The notes: generated by a model not told the origin, from the letters alone. A stretch of 64,000 nucleotides of DNA from an uncultured Rhodanobacter sp. (GCA_964657755.1 CAZZWL010000009.1:239-64238), one strand, 5' to 3'; shown: positions 35,114 through 43,574, counted from the stretch's first letter. Numbers and translations: made by a program.

Positions 35114-35842
35114 GTGCCTGACCTACCTGCCGCCTCCGCCGCCCGCCCCGACCTGCTGCGCGTTTCCTACGACGACTACCGCGCCCTGCCCGCCATTGCT
35201 AACTCCGACCTGTCGCGCCTGCGCGATGCCCTCGACGGCCGCCCGCCGCGCACCGATTCGGGCTCGGGCGCGTTGAGTTTCGGCACAGCCTTCCACACGG
35301 CCCTGCTGGAGCCGGCCGACTATCAGCCCGGCCAGCCCGGCCTCAACGACACCCTCATCTGGTGGCTAGTCGAAGGCGTGAAGCTGAATACGGAGTTGAG
35401 TCGCCTGCTCGAACAGGGCGTGACCGAGCGTAGCGCCGTGTTTAGCGAGCCTACTACCGGCACCCTGTGCAAGCTGCGCGCCGACCTGGTGCTCAACCAG
35501 CCCGGCGAGCCCTACACCGTAGTTGATTTCAAAACAACGTTGGCCCGCGACGCCGACCACTTTCGGCTGCAATGCAGCCACTACGACTACGACCGCCAAG
35601 CGGCCTTTTACCTCGATGCCCTCCGGGCCGACCGCTTCCTGCTGGTGGGCGTGCAAAAAGTCGAGCCCTTCGGCGTATTCCCCCTCGAAGTGCCCGCCGC
35701 TATGCTGGCCGAAGGCCGTAGCAAGTATATGCACCTCCTAAAGTTGCTGCGTGCGCCCGCCACCGCGCCCGCCTACCGGGCCGAAGCCGTGCAGGCCGCC
35801 GCCGCCGCGCTGAGCTACGGCAGCGCTTCGGCTGGCCAATAA
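35114..35842 (+). CDS. PD-(D/E)XK nuclease-like protein (RecE/ExoVIII/DUF3799-like)
   Basis: YDDYRA...SDL, FGTAFH..LLEP, E...F..P.TG.LCKLRADL, VDFKTT, YDYDRQAAFY. Confidence 0.8.
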   Translation: MPDLPAASAARPDLLRVSYDDYRALPAIANSDLSRLRDALDGRPPRTDSGSGALSFGTAFHTALLEPADYQPGQPGLNDTLIWWLVEGVKLNTELSRLLEQGVTERSAVFSEPTTGTLCKLRADLVLNQPGEPYTVVDFKTTLARDADHFRLQCSHYDYDRQAAFYLDALRADRFLLVGVQKVEPFGVFPLEVPAAMLAEGRSKYMHLLKLLRAPATAPAYRAEAVQAAAAALSYGSASAGQ

Positions 35843-35884: not shown

Positions 35885-36889
35885 TCAGAAGCCAGCCAGG
35901 CCATTAGCGGCTAGCTCGCGTAGTAGTTGCCGCAGGCCGGCCGGTTCCCGTAGCTGCCGCGCCAAATGTTCCAGATAGTCCGTTTCGGCGCGCAGGTCGC
36001 GCTTAATCTGGCGCAGGCGGGTGCGCTGCTGCTTCTCGGTGCCACTCCAGGGCTCATCGGCCACGGGGCGTTGCGCGGTGGCCAGCTGCTGGGCCAATTG
36101 CGCGTGCTGCTGCGTCAGCGCGGTGGTATAGCGCCGGAGCAAGGCGTCGGCTTCGGGGCTGGGCGAGGGGGTAGGCGACTCACTGGAGGCCAGCAGCGCG
36201 AGCAGCGCCGCCAAATCGCCCGCCGCGTAGGCGGCCGTGATGCGCTGCATCAGGGCCGTTTGGGCCTGTTGGGTGGCGGCATCAGCCCGGGCCGCGCGGT
36301 CGGGGTGGTGCAGGCGAGCCAGCTGGCGGTAAGCCGCCTTCGTGTTTTGAAGCAATGACTGTTCTTCCGTCTCAGCGGCTTGTGCCTGGGTAGCGCGCTG
36401 CTGGCGGCGCGCTCGGGCGGCGGCGGCGGCCCGTTCGTGGGGTAGGGTGGTCGGGTCATCAGGTTCGGCTGGCGGTGGGGGGGTAGGGGTTTGCGTCTCC
36501 TCGAGCACGGGCGGGGCGGGTGCGTAGCGAGCCAACAATTCGCTCTCATCCTCGCCAAAGCGCCTTTCCAGGCTGCGCGCGTTGTGCACCAGCAGCTCCG
36601 TCACCTGCACCTGCTCGGCGCGGTTGAGGTACCCAGTGGTCAGGGCCAATTCGAGCGGCGCATACAGCGCGCGGCGAGCCGCTACGGCCGCCGCTGCCAC
36701 CGGCCCCACCTGCCGCCAGTACGACTGGCGAGTGGCGGCCTGTGCCGCCCGCAGTGTACTCAGCTGCGCCCGCAAAGCTTCAATAGCCGCCATCGCCTCG
36801 CGAAAAGCGTGCTGCGCCGGCGAACCAACGCTAGTCGCCGCCGCCCGGTCGGGCAGCCATTGGCGCTCAAGAAAAGAAAAGTCAGTCAC
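35885..36889 (-). CDS. Helical protein with internal J-domain-like segment
   Basis: KAAYRQLARLHHPDR...MQRITAAY..GDL contains the HPD motif and is flanked by coiled coils. Confidence 0.75.
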   Translation of the reverse strand: MTDFSFLERQWLPDRAAATSVGSPAQHAFREAMAAIEALRAQLSTLRAAQAATRQSYWRQVGPVAAAAVAARRALYAPLELALTTGYLNRAEQVQVTELLVHNARSLERRFGEDESELLARYAPAPPVLEETQTPTPPPPAEPDDPTTLPHERAAAAARARRQQRATQAQAAETEEQSLLQNTKAAYRQLARLHHPDRAARADAATQQAQTALMQRITAAYAAGDLAALLALLASSESPTPSPSPEADALLRRYTTALTQQHAQLAQQLATAQRPVADEPWSGTEKQQRTRLRQIKRDLRAETDYLEHLARQLREPAGLRQLLRELAANGLAGF

Positions 36890-37050: not shown

Positions 37051-37081
37051 TTGCATACGTAAAATAATTGCCCCACCTTTG
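37051..37081 (+). promoter_or_regulatory. Putative sigma-A promoter of the Ro60/Y RNA/RtcB locus
   Basis: TTG (37051) ... CACCTTTG (37074-37081), one mismatch to TAnnTTTG, 20-nt spacing, in AT-rich DNA. Confidence 0.5.
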
Positions 37082-37102
37082 TCACACTAAACCTTCAACG
37101 CC

Positions 37103-37198
37103 ATGTACCGCCACCTGATAAGCCTTTGCAATTCGGATAAAAAGCAGCCAGAAAAGCTGCCCCGGCTCGGTACGTATGCCTGATTTTAGCTTCCGCTA
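37103..37198 (+). CDS. Putative leader peptide 1 (MYRHLISLCNSDKKQPEKLPGSVRMPDFSFR)
   Basis: 31-codon ORF just after the promoter, ending 12 nt before an intrinsic terminator. Confidence 0.5.
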
Positions 37199-37210
37199 AA
37201 ACTGTCGCCG

Positions 37211-37240
37211 CCCGAGCCCTTGAAGCTCGGGTTTTTTGTT
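37211..37240 (+). terminator. Intrinsic terminator 1 in the rsr leader
   Basis: CCCGAGC-ccttgaa-GCTCGGG followed by TTTTTTGTT. Confidence 0.8.
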
Positions 37241-37276
37241 GTTAGCCGGTTATCAGCCGCTTAGCTCATTCCTTCG

Positions 37277-37369
37277 ATGCCCAATTACCGCCCTAGTTTC
37301 CTGCCTGTGTATAGTCAGCTGCAGTTCGGCCTGGCCGGGCGGCATCCAATACCCCGTGGTTTTTCTTAG
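37277..37369 (+). CDS. Putative leader peptide 2 (MPNYRPSFLPVYSQLQFGLAGRHPIPRGFS)
   Basis: 30-codon ORF between terminator 1 and terminator 2. Confidence 0.45.
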   Translation: MPNYRPSFLPVYSQLQFGLAGRHPIPRGFS

Positions 37370-37417
37370 TGTGTGCCCTGCCGATAACTAATCGGTGAGC
37401 CCTTCGCGAAAGTAAAA

Positions 37418-37445
37418 GCCCGGTCCTGAACACCGGGTTTTTTTG
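37418..37445 (+). terminator. Intrinsic terminator 2 in the rsr leader
   Basis: CCCGGT-cctgaac-ACCGGG followed by TTTTTTTG. Confidence 0.8.
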
Positions 37446-37568
37446 TATTCATTTCACAAATAAAAAGTAATTTTTATTTGATTGGGAAAGGTGCGCCTAA
37501 TGCCAATTAGTAATTAATTAATCGGTAATTAATTACCACCCATTTCCCACCCAGTATTCTTTTTTGTA

Positions 37569-39098
37569 ATGCGTTTCAACCTCAATTTTCGCGGCAACGC
37601 CGCGCTGGTTCGCAACCACGAAAACGCGCCGGCTTTTGCCCTCACCCCGGCTCAGGAGCTGTACGCCGCCGTAGCGACGGCCGCCCTTAGCGACCAGTTC
37701 TACGAGTCGGCCAACACCCGCCTGGCCCGCCTGCGCGAGTTGGTGGCCCGCAGCGACCCGCAGTTTGTGGTCCGGCTGGCCGTGTATGCCCGCGAGCAGC
37801 TCTACCTGCGTTCGGTGCCGTTGGTGCTGGCCATAGAATTGGCCCGCATTCACCGGGGCGATAACCTGGTGAGCCGCTTAGTGGCGCGGGTGGTGCAGCG
37901 CGCCGACGAAATCCCCGAACTACTGGCCTTTTACGCCCAGGCCAATGGCCGTACCGGGGCGAAAGTCCTGGGTCGGCTTTCCAAGCAGATGCAGCATGGT
38001 CTGGCCCTGGCGTTCAATAAATTCGACGCCTACCAGCTGGCCAAGTACGACCGCGACGGCGCGGCCGTGCGCCTCCGCGATGCCCTGTTCCTGGTGCACC
38101 CCAAGCCCCGCGACGAGGCGCAGCAGGCGGTATTCAATCAGCTCGTGGCTGGCACGCTGCCGGTGCCCTACACCTGGGAAACCGAGCTGTCGGCCGCTGG
38201 GCAGGTGGCCTACCCCTCGCCCGCCGAGCGGCAGGCGGCTCTCACTCGCACTTGGGAAACGCTGGTGGCCAGCCGCCGCCTGGGCTACATGGCCTTGCTG
38301 CGCAACCTGCGCAACTTGCTGGAAGCCAACGTAAGCGCCGATACGCTGGCCCTGGCCGGCGCCACCCTCGCCGATGCCGGCCAGGTGGCCCGCGCCCGGC
38401 AATTGCCCTTCCGCTTCCTGGCCGCCTACCGCGAGGTGTTGGCCCTGGAAGCGGGCGCGGCGCCCCCGGTGCTGGCCGCGCTGGAGGCCGCCATTGGGGC
38501 CAGTGCCCGCAACCTGTGCGGTTTCGGGGCCGACACCCGCGTGGTGGTGGCCTGCGACGTATCGGGCTCGATGCAGCAACCTATTTCGCCGCGCAGCAAA
38601 GTGCTGCTCTACGACGTGGGCCTGGTGCTGGGCATGTTGCTGCAAAGCCGCTGCCAGCACGTAGTTACCGGCATCTTCGGCAACACCTGGAAGCGGGTGG
38701 CGCTGCCCCAGGGCCAGGTGCTGCGCAACGTGCAGGAGCTGTACCGGCGCGAGGGGGAGGTGGGCTACGCCACCAACGGCCACCTTGTGGTGCAGGACCT
38801 GCGCCAACGCCGCGAGGTAGTGGATAAGGTGATGATTTTCACCGATTGCCAGCTCTGGGATAGTGCCGGGCAAGGTAACACGCTGGCTCAGGAATGGGCC
38901 GCCTACCGCGCCAACGTGGCGCCCCAGGCTCGCCTCTACCTCTTTGACCTGGCCGGCCACGGTACCGCCCCGCTCGACGTGCGCGCCGAGCACGGCGTGG
39001 CCCTCATCGCCGGCTGGTCGGATAAAATCTTCGACGTGCTCGCCGCCCTCGAAACGGGGGGTAGCGCGCTCACCGAAATCGAAAAAATTGAGCTGTAA
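37569..39098 (+). CDS. rsr: Ro60/Rsr TROVE-domain RNA-binding protein with vWA domain
   Basis: AVYAREQLYLRS.P, KYDR...VRLRDALFLVHPKP, YTWETELS, LGYMALLRNLRN, vWA MIDAS-like DVSGSM, IFTDCQ. Confidence 0.95.
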   Translation: MRFNLNFRGNAALVRNHENAPAFALTPAQELYAAVATAALSDQFYESANTRLARLRELVARSDPQFVVRLAVYAREQLYLRSVPLVLAIELARIHRGDNLVSRLVARVVQRADEIPELLAFYAQANGRTGAKVLGRLSKQMQHGLALAFNKFDAYQLAKYDRDGAAVRLRDALFLVHPKPRDEAQQAVFNQLVAGTLPVPYTWETELSAAGQVAYPSPAERQAALTRTWETLVASRRLGYMALLRNLRNLLEANVSADTLALAGATLADAGQVARARQLPFRFLAAYREVLALEAGAAPPVLAALEAAIGASARNLCGFGADTRVVVACDVSGSMQQPISPRSKVLLYDVGLVLGMLLQSRCQHVVTGIFGNTWKRVALPQGQVLRNVQELYRREGEVGYATNGHLVVQDLRQRREVVDKVMIFTDCQLWDSAGQGNTLAQEWAAYRANVAPQARLYLFDLAGHGTAPLDVRAEHGVALIAGWSDKIFDVLAALETGGSALTEIEKIEL

Positions 39099-39363
39099 AA
39101 ACCAAGCGGCCCGGCCGGGCAATAAAGCGGAAACCCCGGCCAGTTGCGTTAGTCAAGAGCTAGGTTACGAATAAATTAATTTTATTCGGCTTCACTAAAT
39201 CTGGCAAACTAATTGTTCTACTCTTTATACGAATCTGTTCTATGATTCCCGACTTAGGCAAACGGCTGACCCCTTAATGGCAGCCGCTGGCCGGAACGGC
39301 TACCCGCCGGGGCCCTGTTTGCTCCGGCGGCCCGTTCCAAACCAGTCCCCAACTCCCTCTCTT

Positions 39364-39476
39364 TCAGGTGCCGTAGGCTCGGCGTTACTTCGTGGTTGTC
39401 GGCGCAAGCCGTAGGGTTCGAATCCCACTGCTGCTATTTCGGTAGCAGTAGATACGCTGGCCGCTTGTCGCCCTGA
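39364..39476 (+). ncRNA. Y RNA-like unit 1 (permuted class II tRNA mimic, no D arm)
   Basis: GGTGCCGTAG ... CGCTTGTCGCCC terminal element, TACTTCG, variable arm CGGC-gcaa-GCCG, T arm GGGTTCGAATCCC, hairpin-closed acceptor CTGCTGCTA/TAGCAGTAG. Confidence 0.75.
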
Positions 39477-39504
39477 ATTTGGAGCTGCTGATTTTTTTCT
39501 GGTG

Positions 39505-39646
39505 AAACCGGGTGCCATCGCGCAGCCATCCTTCGCTCCTTTTTGGGTTGGTCGCGGGTTCGACTCCCGAAGTAGCGTTGCGTAAGTAATGCCGCGTTTG
39601 CGCAGGGGTAGGGCCAGCCCGTGGCTGCCAATTATTGCCCCGGTTT
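39505..39646 (+). ncRNA. Y RNA-like unit 2 (degenerate)
   Basis: Outer stem AAACCGGG/CCCGGTTT, TGCCATCG variant, inner stem GCAGCCA/TGGCTGC, TCCTTCG, T arm CGGGTTCGACTCCCG. Confidence 0.65.
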
Positions 39647-39714
39647 TTCAGAAATTATTCTGCCGTTTTCCGAGCAATTAATTAATTATTCGGAATAAAA
39701 TTTCAAGCACTAAA

Positions 39715-39856
39715 CAGCGGGTGCTGTAGGCGGGCCATCCTTCGGAAGTTGTGCCGCAAGGTGTGCAGGTTCAAGTCCTGCCCCAGGGCTTGCCCTAGGT
39801 GGCGAAATTAGTAGACGCGCTCCTCAATAGCCGGCCTGCCGCTTGTTGCCCCGCTG
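39715..39856 (+). ncRNA. Y RNA-like unit 3 (permuted tRNA-Leu-like mimic)
   Basis: CAGCGGG/CCCGCTG outer stem, TCCTTCG, variable arm GCC-gcaa-GGT, T arm GCAGGTTCAAGTCCTGC, then D arm GGTGGCGAAATTAGTAGACGCGC, and 3' CGCTTGTTGCCC. Confidence 0.8.
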
Positions 39857-39865
39857 CTTATTTTT

Positions 39866-40017
39866 AATCTAGTTGGGTGCCGTAGCCCGGCCATACTTCG
39901 ACTCTTAATCGCCAGGTCGCGGGTTTGAATCCCGCTGGCCGCTGCTTTGGTAGCGGCTGTAGCTCAGTCAGGTAGAGCAGGATATGGCGGCTGGGCGCTT
40001 GTTGCCCCAACTAGATT
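39866..40017 (+). ncRNA. Y RNA-like unit 4 (permuted tRNA-Lys(CTT)-like mimic)
   Basis: AATCTAGTTGGG/CCCAACTAGATT outer stem, TGCCGTAG, TACTTCG, GACTCTTAATC anticodon loop, T arm GCGGGTTTGAATCCCGC, acceptor TGGCCGC/GCGGCTG, D arm TAGCTCAGTCAGGTAGAGC, CGCTTGTTGCCC. Confidence 0.85.
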
Positions 40018-40028
40018 TAGCTTACTAC

Positions 40029-40161
40029 TACCGGTGCCGTAGGTGCGCCTTACTTCGTTCGATACGGTGCGGTCGCGGGTTCGATTCCCGTTCGTGGGTC
40101 CGGCCCACGGTAGCTCAGTTGGCTAGAGCACATTCAGTGGTGCGCCGCTTGTTGCCCGGTA
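40029..40161 (+). ncRNA. Y RNA-like unit 5 (permuted class I tRNA mimic)
   Basis: TACCGG/CCGGTA outer stem, TGCCGTAG, TACTTCG, T arm CGGGTTCGATTCCCG, acceptor CGTGGG/CCCACG, D arm TAGCTCAGTTGGCTAGAGC, CGCTTGTTGCCC. Confidence 0.85.
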
Positions 40162-40292
40162 TTTTTTAATTAATTTTTCACGCGTACTAATTCGTTTTTT
40201 ATGTCCAGAAATACACCCATCTCCGACCCATTTATATGGCCTATTCACCCACCTAATTCGGCGGCCGGAATTTCGGGCCGCGCCCTTGGCAC

Positions 40293-41600
40293 ATGGCCAA
40301 CCGCAACAAACCTTTATCGGCTCAGGCGCGCACGGCGCTGCGGGCTGCCGCTGCCCTAGCGCAGCATTTGCCCTGGCAAAAATGGCCGCCGGCCCGCCAG
40401 GTAGCGTTTATCTTTTCACCCGATGCCGCGCAGGTTATCGGCGCCCAGGCCGAGCCGCATTCGGCCCTGGCGCAGCTGCACCGCCACTGCGTGGCCACCC
40501 GCACCGGCAATGAGCAGGGGCGCATCCGCCACTTCCTCAGCCAGCTTATCAAGTGCCGAACCCGGCTGCTGGACCGCCCCGAGCTGGCTCCGGCCCTGGC
40601 GCACCTGGGCCTGCACTACGCCCACCGGGTGCGCGAAGTAGCCAGCTGGCAGCCGCGCTCCAAAAACGTTTTTTACCAGCTCGACAGCTTAATTCGCCAC
40701 CTTTTTGACCAGTTTGGCGATGTGCCGGGTTGGGTGCTCAATGGCTGGGGTAGGGCGCCCGAGCAGCCCACGGGCGTCGACCTCACGCTGCTTCTTTTGC
40801 ACCTGGGTAGGGGCCAGGCGCTGCGGAGTTTCGCGGGTTTGCCCGTGCCGCTCACCAAGCGCTTGGAGCACGGCTTGCGGCAGGCCCCGGACGGCTGCAC
40901 GTTCCAAGAAGCCTACCGCTACGCCCAACTGGCGGCCCGCGACGCAACCGAGTGGCTGGGCGTAGTGCTCGACTCGCGGCTGGGTCGCGAGCCCATCGGC
41001 CCCGACGATGCGCTGTGGCTGGCGGTGCTCGACCTGTTTCGGGCCGAGCCGGAGGTCGATGCCTGGCAATTTGGCCCGGTGTGCGACTGGATTCACTTCC
41101 GCCGCCGCGTGGGCAGCCTGGCCGAGCCGGCGCAGCCCAACTTCTCGCTGCGGGGCCGCAGCCTGGCCTCGCTGCTGGCGCACACCGCGCGCTGGCATCG
41201 CACGCTAAACCCAGCCCGGCGCAACCCGCGCTTTCAGGAGCTGCTGGCGGCCGTGTGGCCGGGGCTGGCGGTGCCCGATTTTGCGGGCGGCGACGGCGAG
41301 TGGGTCCACATCCGGCAGCTGCGCAGCTACCCCGAATTGCTCGACGAAGGCCGCCACATGCACCACTGCGTGGCCTCCTACGTGCACCAGTGCAAGCGTG
41401 GGCGGCGGGGTATCTATTCACTCACCTTCAACGGCGGCCGGATGCTGACCCTCGAAGTCACGCCCGAATACCAGCTGGTGCAGGTCCGTGGCAAGTACAA
41501 CCGCCGCCCTACCCCCCTCGAGCGCCACTGGCTTGCCCACTGGCTCCGAAAGGAGCGCCTCACGGCCGCCGACCGGGTGTGGGAGGGCGTTTTCGACTAA
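40293..41600 (+). CDS. PcfJ-like domain protein
   Basis: C-terminal L..EG..MHHCVASY...IYSL...LTLEV...QVRGKYN motif characteristic of PcfJ-like proteins. Confidence 0.85.
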   Translation: MANRNKPLSAQARTALRAAAALAQHLPWQKWPPARQVAFIFSPDAAQVIGAQAEPHSALAQLHRHCVATRTGNEQGRIRHFLSQLIKCRTRLLDRPELAPALAHLGLHYAHRVREVASWQPRSKNVFYQLDSLIRHLFDQFGDVPGWVLNGWGRAPEQPTGVDLTLLLLHLGRGQALRSFAGLPVPLTKRLEHGLRQAPDGCTFQEAYRYAQLAARDATEWLGVVLDSRLGREPIGPDDALWLAVLDLFRAEPEVDAWQFGPVCDWIHFRRRVGSLAEPAQPNFSLRGRSLASLLAHTARWHRTLNPARRNPRFQELLAAVWPGLAVPDFAGGDGEWVHIRQLRSYPELLDEGRHMHHCVASYVHQCKRGRRGIYSLTFNGGRMLTLEVTPEYQLVQVRGKYNRRPTPLERHWLAHWLRKERLTAADRVWEGVFD

Positions 41601-41616
41601 AAACCACCACCCACCT

Positions 41617-41678
41617 GCGGTGCCGTAGCGCCGTCTGCCATCGCTTGAAAACCGACCGCTGGCGCGCCTCTTCTCTGC
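41617..41678 (+). ncRNA. Short Y-like unit 6 (no T or D arm)
   Basis: GGTGCCGTAG, inner stem GCGCC/GGCGC, and a loop containing CTTGAAAACC (Ser-TGA anticodon-loop-like). The 3' motif is degenerate. Confidence 0.45.
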
Positions 41679-41682
41679 TTTT

Positions 41683-41780
41683 ATTCAAGTTGCCGGATGC
41701 CGTAGGCCCGCGTTCCTTCGACCTGTCACGTCGCCTTTTGGCCCGACGCGGGCCGCCTGTCGCTCCGGCAATTTTTGAAT
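41683..41780 (+). ncRNA. Short Y-like unit 7 (no T or D arm)
   Basis: TTGCCGGA/TCCGGCAA outer stem, TGCCGTAG, perfect inner stem GGCCCGCGT/ACGCGGGCC, TCCTTCG, 3' CGCCTGTCGC. Confidence 0.65.
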
Positions 41781-41794
41781 TAGGCTGATTAAAA

Positions 41795-41908
41795 AGCCGC
41801 TGGAACGTCATTCCGAGCTTGTCGAGGAATCTCGCTCGCTTCGTTGAACGATACCCGAACGGCCTGGGCGAGATTCCTCGGCAAGCTCGGAATGACGTTC
41901 CAGCGGCT
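41795..41908. repeat. REP/MITE-like inverted repeat (GTCATTCCGAG type)
   Basis: 41-bp arms AGCCGCTGGAACGTCATTCCGAGCTTGTCGAGGAATCTCGC / GCGAGATTCCTCGGCAAGCTCGGAATGACGTTCCAGCGGCT with one G-U pair. Confidence 0.8.
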
Positions 41909-41959
41909 GTCCGCATGCCAATTCATCATTCCAAATACCCCATTCTAAATCTCAAACTA

Positions 41960-43360
41960 ATGGCTTCTATTTTACGGGGCAATGACTTGCGGCAGCTCGG
42001 GTTTCCCGAGGGCCGCGCTATCGGGCTGGCGCTGGCGCAGTTGCAGCGCAAAGAACACAAGCGCCTGACCCAGGCCGACCAGCTCGAATTGCTGAAAGCA
42101 ATTCTGGCGACGCCCACCGATTTTCTTACCGACCTGGCCTGGAGCCACACCGCCGCCGCGCTGCTACCCCCCGTGTCGCGGCACATCGAGCTGGTGGCGC
42201 GCAAGCCCTACGTCACCTTCGGCGCCGAACACATCGACGCCGGGGCGGTGCACCAGATGGAAACCGCCATGAAGCTGCCCGTGACCGTGGCCGGCGCCCT
42301 CATGCCCGACGCCCACCACGGCTACGGCCTGCCCATCGGCGGCGTGCTGGCCACCGATAACGCCGTGATTCCCTACGCCGTGGGCGTGGACATTGGCTGC
42401 CGCATGGCCCTCTCGGTGTATGACCTGCCGGCCAAGTACCTCACCCAGCGCGTGCAGGAAGTGCGCCACCTGCTGCTCGAAAACACCCGTTTCGGTAGCG
42501 GCCGCAGCTGGGAGCGGGGCCAGCGCCTCGACCACGCCGTGCTGCACAGCGACACGTTCCAGGCCATTCCGTTTCTGAAAAACAAGCTCGACCGCGCCGC
42601 TGAGCAGGTGGGCACGTCGGGCTCGGGCAACCACTTCGTGGAGTTCGGGATTGTGGAAATCATCGACCCAGCCAACGAGTTGGCCCTACCCCCCGGTCAG
42701 TACGTGGGCGTGCTCTCGCACTCGGGCTCGCGGGGGCTGGGCGCGGGCATTGCCGAGCACTATACCAAGCTCGCCAAAGACGTGTGCCAGCTGCCCGCCG
42801 AGGCGCAAAACCTGGCCTGGCTGGGCCTCGACACCGAGGCCGGCCAGGAATACTGGGCCGCCATGAACCTGGCCGGCGACTACGCCTCGGCTTGCCACGA
42901 CCAGATTCACCGTCGGCTAGCGCGCGCCTTGGGCGAAAAGCCGCTGGCGAAAGTGGAAAACCACCACAACTTCGCCTGGAAGGAGCGCCTGGCCGATGGC
43001 CGCGAGGTCATCACGCACCGCAAGGGCGCTACCCCGGCCGGCGCGGGCGTGCTCGGCATTATTCCCGGCTCCATGACGGCCCCCGGCTTCATTGTGCGGG
43101 GTAGGGGCGCGGCGGCGTCGCTGGCTTCGGCCTCGCACGGGGCGGGCCGGCTGCTGTCGCGCACCCGCGCCAAGGCCGAAATCGGCGAAGCCGACCTACG
43201 CCGGCAGCTTGCCGACCACGGCGTGGAGCTGCTCGGCGGTGGCCTCGACGAAGCCCCACAGGCCTACAAAGACATCCACACCGTGATGGCCAGCCAGCGC
43301 GAATTAGTGGATGTGCTCGGCTCCTTCACGCCCAGAATCGTGCGGATGGATGGTGCTTGA
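41960..43360 (+). CDS. rtcB: RtcB family RNA ligase with N-terminal extension
   Basis: MPDAHHGYGLPIGG, VDIGC, GSGNHF, SHSGSRG, NHHNF, HRKGA, IPGSM, SHGAG, DEAPQAYK. Start placed at ATG 41960. Confidence 0.96.
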   Translation: MASILRGNDLRQLGFPEGRAIGLALAQLQRKEHKRLTQADQLELLKAILATPTDFLTDLAWSHTAAALLPPVSRHIELVARKPYVTFGAEHIDAGAVHQMETAMKLPVTVAGALMPDAHHGYGLPIGGVLATDNAVIPYAVGVDIGCRMALSVYDLPAKYLTQRVQEVRHLLLENTRFGSGRSWERGQRLDHAVLHSDTFQAIPFLKNKLDRAAEQVGTSGSGNHFVEFGIVEIIDPANELALPPGQYVGVLSHSGSRGLGAGIAEHYTKLAKDVCQLPAEAQNLAWLGLDTEAGQEYWAAMNLAGDYASACHDQIHRRLARALGEKPLAKVENHHNFAWKERLADGREVITHRKGATPAGAGVLGIIPGSMTAPGFIVRGRGAAASLASASHGAGRLLSRTRAKAEIGEADLRRQLADHGVELLGGGLDEAPQAYKDIHTVMASQRELVDVLGSFTPRIVRMDGA

Positions 43361-43449
43361 AAAAAAGTTCCACCTAGGTAAATCCACTGAGCTTAATCAT
43401 TGCGTAAAGTACCATAGGCTCGCCAGAGCCGTGTTTTCATAGCTCAGGA

Positions 43450-43479
43450 AAGCCCGCTGCCTTTGGCTGCGGGTTTTTT
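43450..43479 (+). terminator. Intrinsic terminator after rtcB
   Basis: AAGCCCGCTGCC-ttt-GGCTGCGGG-TTTTTT. Confidence 0.7.
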
Positions 43480-43574
43480 ATTGCCCTGAATAACGAGTCT
43501 GCGCCGCCAAAGCCGTCAGCTTCCGCGTCTTCTGCGCCCTCTGCGGGCTAAAACTACCCGAACGACGGCGATGC

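Follow-up and report, generated by a model that had tools for sequence, protein, structure and literature searches.

What bacterial Ro60 proteins, their Y RNAs and the RNA ligase RtcB are for, and which signal induces them, is an open question, and the RtcR route, described with tRNA fragments in Salmonella, is the only one known. The question is raised again by a locus at positions 37051-43480 of a 64,000-nucleotide stretch of DNA (the window) deposited as an uncultured Rhodanobacter sp. (GCA_964657755.1 CAZZWL010000009.1:239-64238). Here, a Ro60 gene (rsr), an array of Y RNA units, a PcfJ-domain gene (pcfJ) and rtcB follow a long leader in a genome in which RtcR was not found. How could such a locus be controlled, and what might its additional components do? 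We consider it fairly probable, from the comparisons described below, that this is the Hymenobacter version of the known Ro60 (Rsr)-Y RNA-RtcB surveillance and repair operon, with a new control and a new composition. It appears that two tandem leader-peptide attenuators, predicted from the leader sequences, control the operon instead of RtcR.

A conserved RNA-repair locus

Every element of block 37051-43480 lies on the + strand: the promoter-like site, the leader, rsr, the Y units, pcfJ, rtcB and the terminator. An earlier note on this DNA had described a single co-oriented locus with a promoter, two cassettes each made of an upstream open reading frame (uORF) and a terminator, a TROVE protein, RNA units, PcfJ, RtcB and a final terminator, and all of these were recovered by Pfam searches, a covariance model and a comparative alignment of leaders. 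The nearest related locus is that of Hymenobacter sp. UV11 (95% Rsr identity) and, going by the named related loci, the locus of the window belongs in Hymenobacter; H. psoromatis and H. ginkgonis are also among the relatives identified. In all of the approximately 50 Hymenobacter loci compared, rsr, the array and rtcB occur together with the same order and orientation, so that the arrangement which the earlier note had proposed to look for in relatives is indeed kept. Judged by this synteny, the RNA-repair locus, which combines Ro60, PcfJ and RtcB with six to seven tRNA-like Y RNAs, is real, and it is conserved throughout the genus.

The first gene, rsr (37569-39098, + strand), encodes a Ro60 orthologue with a TROVE domain (PF05731, E 6e-26), a Ro60 von Willebrand factor A (vWA) domain (PF25045, E 1e-6) and a DVSGS metal-ion-dependent adhesion site (MIDAS)-type motif, found within the peptide pattern CDVSGSMQ. 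Orthologues occur throughout Hymenobacter at 70-95% identity. The protein reaches just 27.5 bits with the NCBIfam Rsr equivalog, whose cut-off is 900, and therefore seems to represent a divergent branch.

The host genome is a 5.6-Mb assembly estimated at 98.9% completeness, to which all genome-wide counts and absences given here refer. Profile searches of the whole genome detected neither RtcR (PF06956; an E. coli control was positive) nor RtcA (PF01137; the control genome was positive). Sigma54-like sites were absent from the intergenic parts of the locus, all matches being within coding sequence, and no GG-N10-GC site was found upstream of the operon. These searches and the site scan agree with the earlier description of the locus as a Bacteroidota variant without RtcR, RtcA or a sigma54 site.

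A leader with two uORFs and two terminators

The leader, 430 nt long and located upstream of rsr in the window, was used as a profile to search the genome and the related loci. Full-length matches were obtained in 34 Hymenobacter loci, and there was no second match elsewhere in the host genome. The leader always precedes the first gene of the locus, including pcfJ where pcfJ is upstream of rsr. It opens with a promoter-like site of Bacteroidetes type (37051-37082, + strand), detected by a pattern search and made of a TTG at -33, a 20-nt spacer and the -7-like element CACCTTTG. This site is the sole [TC]AnnTTTG with an upstream TTG on the + strand between 36.9 and 43.6 kb, and both TTG and AnnTTTG are kept in the 34 related leaders.

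The first uORF (uORF1, 37103-37183, + strand) has 26 codons (MYRHLISLCNSDKKQPEKLPRLGTYA), and its 3' end contains the sequence GGCTCGG (37164-37170), which is the 5' strand of the putative antiterminator 1. In the alignment of leaders its ATG is invariant and its frame is open in 35 of 35 sequences, over 25-28 codons, as against 13 and 2 for the other two frames. Just 3' of its stop lies a hairpin, P2 (TTTTAGC...GCTAAAA, 37184-37201, + strand), which was found with RNAalifold, is nested in antiterminator 1 and shows compensatory changes at pairs 168-171:179-183. It is followed by a predicted intrinsic terminator, terminator 1 (37210-37238, + strand; GCCCGAGCC...GCTCGGGT and a U-run), which folds at -14.5 to -25 kcal/mol across the leaders and whose 5' arm doubles as the 3' strand of antiterminator 1.

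The second cassette has the same plan. In the window, uORF2 (37277-37369, + strand) has 30 codons and ends at a premature TAG; in relatives it has 35-36 codons and a stop conserved within CGNTAA. Its frame is open in 34 of the 35 leaders (16 and 5 for the other frames), the indels seen in its alignment are 3-nt gaps, and the ATGs of the uORFs are invariant or nearly so. The 5' strand of the putative antiterminator 2 is located at 37354-37367. Around the ancestral uORF2 stop, the comparison revealed a hairpin, P4 (CCGAT-AACTA-ATCGG, 37381-37395, + strand), for which relatives carry the compensatory variants CCGGT/ACCGA, GTCAC/GTGAC and CGTAG/CTACG. The second predicted intrinsic terminator, AAAAGCCCGGT...ACCGGGTTTTTTT, follows at 37414-37449 (+ strand).

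Downstream of terminator 2 there is an AU-rich inverted repeat, CAAATAAAAA-GTAA-TTTTTATTTG (37457-37480, + strand; -7.9 kcal/mol, z -3.5), which is conserved in relatives with compensatory changes and could be either an RNA hairpin or an operator. The pattern [CT][GA]AATAAA-N4-10-TTTATT[CT][GA] occurs twice in the 5.6-Mb genome, at 37457-37480 and, after rsr, at 39168-39188. An operator belonging to a wider regulon was rejected, as both genomic copies are in this locus and the second is not conserved in relatives.

Competing antiterminators and a possible switch

The end of uORF1 carries the motif GGYTCGGTA, which is able to pair with the 5' arm of terminator 1, CCGARCC. RNAalifold applied to 34 leaders returned this antiterminator 1 as the consensus structure, with a covarying pair (CG in 22 leaders, UA in 10), and when the 3' arm of terminator 1 was left out, about 32 of the 34 leaders evaluated folded individually into antiterminator 1, with energies of -15 to -25 kcal/mol. 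The uORF1 stop is 4-8 nt past GGYTCGGTA. This motif is kept in both main clades although its reading frame differs between them, and it therefore seems to be constrained as RNA. For antiterminator 2, GGCCGKGMUUUUU within uORF2 pairs with AAAAAGCCCGGC in a helix of 12-17 bp, which has an energy of -25 to -38 kcal/mol and is seen in essentially every one of the 35 leaders. Both antiterminators are the minimum-energy folds when the 3' arms of the terminators are withheld.

We infer from this anatomy that ribosomes operate the switch and that damage to translation could be the signal. With efficient translation of uORF1 and uORF2, a ribosome at the end of each uORF would occupy or separate the 5' strand of the antiterminator; with this strand blocked, the terminators would form and the operon would be off. 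If ribosomes were slowed, stalled or scarce, because of cleaved or damaged tRNA or rRNA or of translation inhibitors, the antiterminators would form, RNA polymerase would pass both terminators, and Rsr, the Y RNAs, PcfJ and RtcB would be made. Two attenuators in series would give a sharper response. The pair would stand in for the RtcR/sigma54 sensor of Proteobacteria, which the host genome is without. By analogy with Deinococcus and Salmonella, the Y RNAs, once produced, would bind Rsr through their conserved stem, and their tRNA-like modules might recruit proteins that recognise tRNA or act as decoys for them; RtcB would reseal broken RNAs, with PcfJ as a possible accessory RNA-repair factor. 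A role against anticodon nucleases or ribotoxins would be plausible.

An array of diverged Y RNA units

The Y RNA units were characterized with a covariance model, R1, made from the five units U1-U5 of the window. U1 (39362-39478; 79.9 bits) has a Ro-binding stem, a T arm and an acceptor-like hairpin in its predicted fold, without a D arm, and U2 (39506-39645; 102 bits) has a T arm and a Ro-type stem whose 3' motif is divergent, the D arm being replaced by other hairpins. U3 (39715-39856; 116 bits) is of YrlA type, with a D arm and a variable region like those of tRNA-Leu. Units U4 (39871-40012; 130 bits) and U5 (40028-40162; 127 bits) are complete YrlA-type units, with a T arm, a closed acceptor and a D arm in U4 and a U-run following U5. 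Two short units are located farther downstream, after pcfJ: U6 (41614-41681; 5.7 bits), of a short class without a tRNA-like module, whose 3' Ro-binding half is decayed, and U7 (41691-41770; 49.7 bits, fold z -3.2), a stem-only unit that resembles YrlB in being without a tRNA module. All units are on the + strand. Of the seven units announced in the earlier note, six are thus intact and one, U6, is degenerate, its 3' motif having decayed; U6 aligns as the orthologue of intact short units in three related loci (L042, L048 and L020).

U1-U5 have a common plan. A unit-specific outer stem is followed by a bulged helix made of the 5' motif GGUGCCGUAG and the 3' motif CGCUUGUYGCC, inside which are an inner stem, an (A/C)CUUCG loop, a T arm and a hairpin-closed acceptor stem; the D arm is present in U3-U5 only and is placed 3' of the T arm. 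The tRNA-like module is therefore full in U3, U4 and U5, reduced to the T arm in U1 and U2, and lacking in U6 and U7. The putative Ro-binding helix 1, with its conserved motifs GUGCCGUAG and CGCUUGUYGCC, is 97% paired and 7 of its 8 pairs covary. Matches with the Rfam YrlA family (RF02553) were obtained at 39887-40011 (U4, 36.3 bits) and 40028-40165 (U5, 35.7 bits), short of the gathering score of 69, so that the units of the window are best described, from sequence, as a YrlA-like subfamily, homologous but divergent. The six R1 matches are all on the + strand and start 3' of rsr at distances of 0.26-2.7 kb, within the 4 kb used for YrlA, and an R1 search of the whole 5.6-Mb genome gave zero matches beyond these six. 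The array also includes two AT-rich spacers (39646-39714 and 40163-40292).

Between rsr and U1, a stable structured element (39250-39345; -51.3 kcal/mol, z -3.6) is common to the window and L042. At this site, other Hymenobacter loci have one more Y unit, some 105 nt long ('unit 0'). By R1, the element does not belong to the Y family, and the window has no 'unit 0' between rsr and U1.

R1 identified 97 units in the window and 16 related loci, with 5-8 units per Hymenobacter locus, and 401 units in 80 Bacteroidota rsr loci from several families; each of the 300 matches listed is located 3' of rsr and on the same strand as this gene. Flavobacterium has about two units per locus and Pontibacter about four. 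In the alignment of the 97 units, 94% of cells are paired, 30 pairs in 5 helices are kept, and 670 double-change cells were counted versus 196 in shuffles; when the partners were slid as a control, pairing fell to 38-49%. This alignment was fitted to R1 itself, and the margin over the controls is large. Independently, RNAalifold on the five window units alone detected 14 covarying pairs.

Identity among U1-U5 within the window is 56-68%, and U7 is 26-47% identical to U1-U5. The tRNA-like units find their best cross-genome matches at 65-86% identity in 12 related Hymenobacter loci, in roughly colinear order. U4 is the best-conserved unit in the genus, with 73-86% identity to its best match in these 12 loci. 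For U7, 8 of these 12 loci contain a match of 69-82%, situated at the 3' end of the array or close to it; the remaining four are without a clear counterpart. Because identity within the window is below identity between species, with rough colinearity, the array is, as judged from sequence, a maintained set of old paralogues and not a recent amplification.

BLAST comparison with the 42 tRNAs of the same genome revealed a permuted tRNA order, in which unit positions of about 44-66 correspond to tRNA positions 45-66 and unit positions 82-110 to tRNA positions 5-29. U3 agrees at 22 of 23 nt with positions 7-29 of the tRNA-Leu(cag) encoded in the host genome, and the variable region is also similar; the other units display generic T-arm and D-arm similarity only. 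The identification of U4 as a near-complete tRNA-Lys(CTT) was weakly supported, the likeness being 22 of 24 nt in the D arm with an E of 0.02. Hence the comparison did not demonstrate the 'isotype-specific' panel of tRNA mimics envisaged in the earlier note, U3 alone being clearly Leu-like.

PcfJ and RtcB

Between the array and rtcB lies pcfJ (40293-41600, + strand), which encodes 435 amino acids forming an N-terminal helical region and a C-terminal alpha/beta PcfJ domain in an AlphaFold2 model (predicted local distance difference test score, 86.5). The domain matches PF14284 at residues 297-407 (E 8e-15, 55.3 bits against a cut-off of 25), and the residues invariant in an alignment of 24 homologues include E352, G353, H358, C359 and C367. 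PcfJ had already been placed within the locus by the earlier note, and this match, with the recurrence of the gene in relatives, bears it out. No sequence match was found in the PDB or in NCBIfam, and PHROGs gave families of unknown function only. A function deduced from a weak GNAT-like likeness of the C-terminal domain was rejected (Foldseek E 0.2).

Where present in Hymenobacter, pcfJ is either between the array and rtcB, as in the window, or directly upstream of rsr, and in both layouts it is inside the unit that runs from leader to terminator. PcfJ-like genes also occur in the rsr-rtcB loci of one Flammeovirgaceae and one Sphingobacteriales genome. Farther away, one distant homologue is a divergent neighbour of RtcB, and another lies on a phage-like contig, with a PF09414 RNA ligase gene on either side. 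Long-form homologues were found within tRNA gene arrays in 2 of 8 jumbo-phage loci, the IMG/VR contigs L128 and L129 (467 and 494 kb), whose proteins are 28-30% identical to PcfJ over about 300-340 residues and have, respectively, 20 and 7 tRNAs within 6 kb. Most short viral PcfJ-domain matches have no ligase nearby, and thus the association with ligases would concern the long form. No Y units were detected near the distant or phage homologues. A link between PcfJ and RNA repair was not found in the searchable literature, whose reach excluded the survey likeliest to mention it.

The last gene, rtcB (41915-43360, + strand; 481 amino acids), encodes an RNA 3'-phosphate/5'-OH ligase. The Pfam match (PF01139, E 4e-82, 277 bits) was obtained in an open reading frame (ORF) spanning 41819-43360. 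Since the RtcB proteins of relatives can be aligned only from about residue 32 of this ORF, translation probably begins farther in, at the ATG located in frame at 41915. The motifs MPDAHxGYG, GSGNHF, HRKGAT and SxHGAGR are conserved in an alignment to RtcB matches in the PDB, including P. horikoshii RtcB. An N-terminal extension of about 110 amino acids (41915-42260) is kept within the genus and had zero Pfam family matches. Many Hymenobacter loci (L053, L054, L062, L064, L065, L067, L077-L079 and L085) have a second RtcB paralogue, 55-65% identical to the first and located downstream of it at a distance of between a few hundred bases and about 3 kb; the genome of the window has only a distant paralogue elsewhere, at 30% identity (C126:1135-2454).

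Other features of the locus and its surroundings

The block ends with an intrinsic terminator (43447-43479, + strand; -22.3 kcal/mol, z -3.5, then UUUUUU). Between U7 and rtcB, BLAST revealed a dispersed, near-perfectly palindromic repeat of 122 nt (41789-41910, strandless), with 248 high-scoring segment pairs, about two per copy, on many contigs of the host genome. Each of its strands gives a sub-threshold match to Rfam RF02901, and in L042, the nearest relative, there is no space for the repeat before rtcB. A regulatory hairpin or a small RNA at this site was thus rejected, the element being a dispersed genomic repeat and not a component of the system.

Upstream of the leader are a PD-(D/E)XK/DUF3799 nuclease-like gene and, in divergent orientation, a DnaJ-domain gene (35114-35842 and 35885-36889), which are syntenic in the closest clade and are parted from rsr by insertions in others. 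Three GenBank metagenome-assembled genomes titled Janthinobacterium lividum (L043, L047 and L048) contain Hymenobacter-type rsr loci, with 86-88% Rsr identity and flanking PD-(D/E)XK and DnaJ-like genes as in the window; their label is apparently wrong or the bins are contaminated.

Alternative explanations and points of weakness

Several observations weigh against control by tandem attenuators as we propose it, or against the locus acting as one unit. In the other Bacteroidota genera sampled, no such leader was detected ahead of rsr, and uORF2 stops prematurely in the window itself. In most relatives, the uORF2 stop is 26-27 nt beyond the 5' strand of antiterminator 2, a gap that makes occlusion by the ribosome less obvious for uORF2 than for uORF1. 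The uORF1 and uORF2 peptides of the 35 leaders have diverged in sequence and contain no regulatory codon run, and therefore the sequence does not tell which signal is sensed; the absence of such runs fits the sensing of general translation, not of one amino acid. A stem and a U-run end most Y units (U1, U2, U3, U5 and U7), partial termination may occur within the array, and rtcB and pcfJ may depend on read-through or on non-consensus promoters. The PcfJ model has no significant fold match in the PDB (best Foldseek E 0.2), and the gene is absent from about half of the approximately 50 Hymenobacter loci. Also, the transcription start, co-transcription, translation of the uORFs and termination are all predictions from sequence. 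From the tandem attenuation put forward in the earlier note, we retain the anatomy, that is to say the conserved uORFs, the covarying terminators and the antiterminators overlapping the uORF ends, but not stalling as the established signal.

The same leader could be an attenuator run by a trans-acting factor, the short ORFs being incidental: Rsr itself in an autoregulation, an RNA-binding antiterminator protein, or tRNAs or tRNA fragments acting in a T-box-like manner. The hairpins P1 (inside uORF1), P2 and P4 are conserved in a way that implies RNA-level constraint beyond coding, blocks such as AATTCGGATAAGATGCAGCC are strongly conserved even at third codon positions, and the AU-rich inverted repeat 3' of terminator 2 and the lack of regulatory codons point in the same direction. 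However, clades with very different nucleotide sequences agree in the start, frame, length and stop of both ORFs, the gaps in uORF2 preserve the frame and the other frames are mostly closed. In addition, the antiterminator 5' strands are located where the ORFs end, a layout known from classical leader-peptide attenuators, and a search of the leader against Rfam gave zero family matches. We judge a trans-acting factor to be unlikely. It is slightly less likely still, in our opinion, that the locus is not a single regulated unit at all, the leader producing two small terminated RNAs or proteins, the Y RNAs, pcfJ and rtcB having separate promoters, and PcfJ being a passenger from a mobile element. 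Such a reading could account for the U-runs after the stems of the Y units, for the AT-rich spacers of the array and for the dispersed repeat inserted before rtcB, as well as for a protein named after a conjugative-plasmid gene that is missing in about half of the loci and varies in position. It is countered by the single consensus promoter-like site on the + strand of the locus, by a leader which travels with the first gene, be it rsr or pcfJ, by an order and orientation constant in all of the roughly 50 loci, and by the recurrence of PcfJ relatives next to two unrelated families of RNA ligases. Finally, the Y units could be functionless tRNA-derived repeats decaying beside rsr, as the state of U6 in the genome of the window, the variable number of units per species (5 to at least 8) and Rfam scores under the gathering threshold might suggest. 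This we find hardly credible in view of the covariation that maintains 30 pairs in 5 helices, the conserved Ro-binding motifs, the strand-specificity of units which in the host genome occur at the rsr locus only, and their rough colinearity between species and presence in several Bacteroidota families.

Comparison with known systems

The closest known system to the operon that we propose is the rsr-yrlBA-rtcBA operon of Salmonella enterica (Chen et al., 2013; Hughes et al., 2020, PMC7790460). The two systems share a Ro60 orthologue, a YrlA-type Y RNA, a Y RNA without a tRNA module and RtcB on a single strand, and each presumably forms one stress-induced unit. In contrast with Salmonella, the locus of the window has neither RtcA nor RtcR/sigma54 control, in place of which stands the 430-nt leader with two putative attenuators; it has six or seven Y units instead of two, a PcfJ-domain gene inside the operon, and an RtcB extended by about 110 amino acids at the N-terminus.

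The YrlA family (RF02553) counts 355 candidates in 254 bacteria and 22 phages, at most 4 kb from rsr (Chen et al., 2014, PMC4201824). The units described here share with it the location and strand relative to rsr, a bulged Ro-binding stem with a 3' CUUGUYGCC, and a T arm, a closed acceptor stem and a D arm in permuted order. They differ from it by their scores (36 bits against a gathering score of 69), by an additional conserved (A/C)CUUCG internal loop, by their arrangement in arrays, in which old paralogues number 5-8 or more as against an average of about 1.3 per genome in the published set, and by the absence of the D arm or of the entire tRNA module in some units.

Attenuators mediated by the ribosome include the leader peptides of trp, his and leu type, the 'Bacteroid-trp' motif of Bacteroidetes and the antibiotic-sensing leaders of ABCF and erm genes. 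Like them, the present leader has a short ORF that ends in or beside the 5' strand of an antiterminator, the competing structure is an intrinsic terminator, and read-through would be expected when the ribosome lags. Unlike them, the leader has no codon run for a single amino acid, it comprises two complete attenuators in tandem, and the genes that it would control are those of RNA repair and surveillance. No description of an attenuator controlling an RNA repair or surveillance system was found in the searchable literature. A further parallel is Deinococcus radiodurans, also from a radiation- and desiccation-tolerant genus, with its Rsr and the Y RNAs Yrn1 and Yrn2 (the RYPER complex with polynucleotide phosphorylase), where several Y RNAs are likewise beside rsr. 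In Deinococcus, the Y RNAs are upstream of rsr and the locus is responsive to UV and radiation; no attenuator leader is reported there, nor is a PcfJ gene.

Significance

We also hypothesize, more tentatively and with less conviction than for the operon itself, that a purely cis-acting sensor read by the ribosome has replaced RtcR and that the operon would function as a 'translation-damage alarm'. The Y RNAs might then be specialised adaptors or decoys, and PcfJ a hitherto unrecognised RNA-repair enzyme or a cofactor that works with RtcB- and Rnl-type ligases, serving as a counter-defence in phages and conjugative elements.

If true, a conserved cis-acting attenuator would provide a second, independent answer to the question of what induces these systems, namely the quality of translation itself, and would tie RNA repair to the performance of the ribosome. 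With 5-8 or more old, diverged Y RNAs each, the arrays provide a natural resource for asking what the tRNA-like module recruits. Also, the recurrent pairing of PcfJ with two unrelated families of RNA ligases may constitute a first functional lead for a protein family that is common on conjugative elements and phages.

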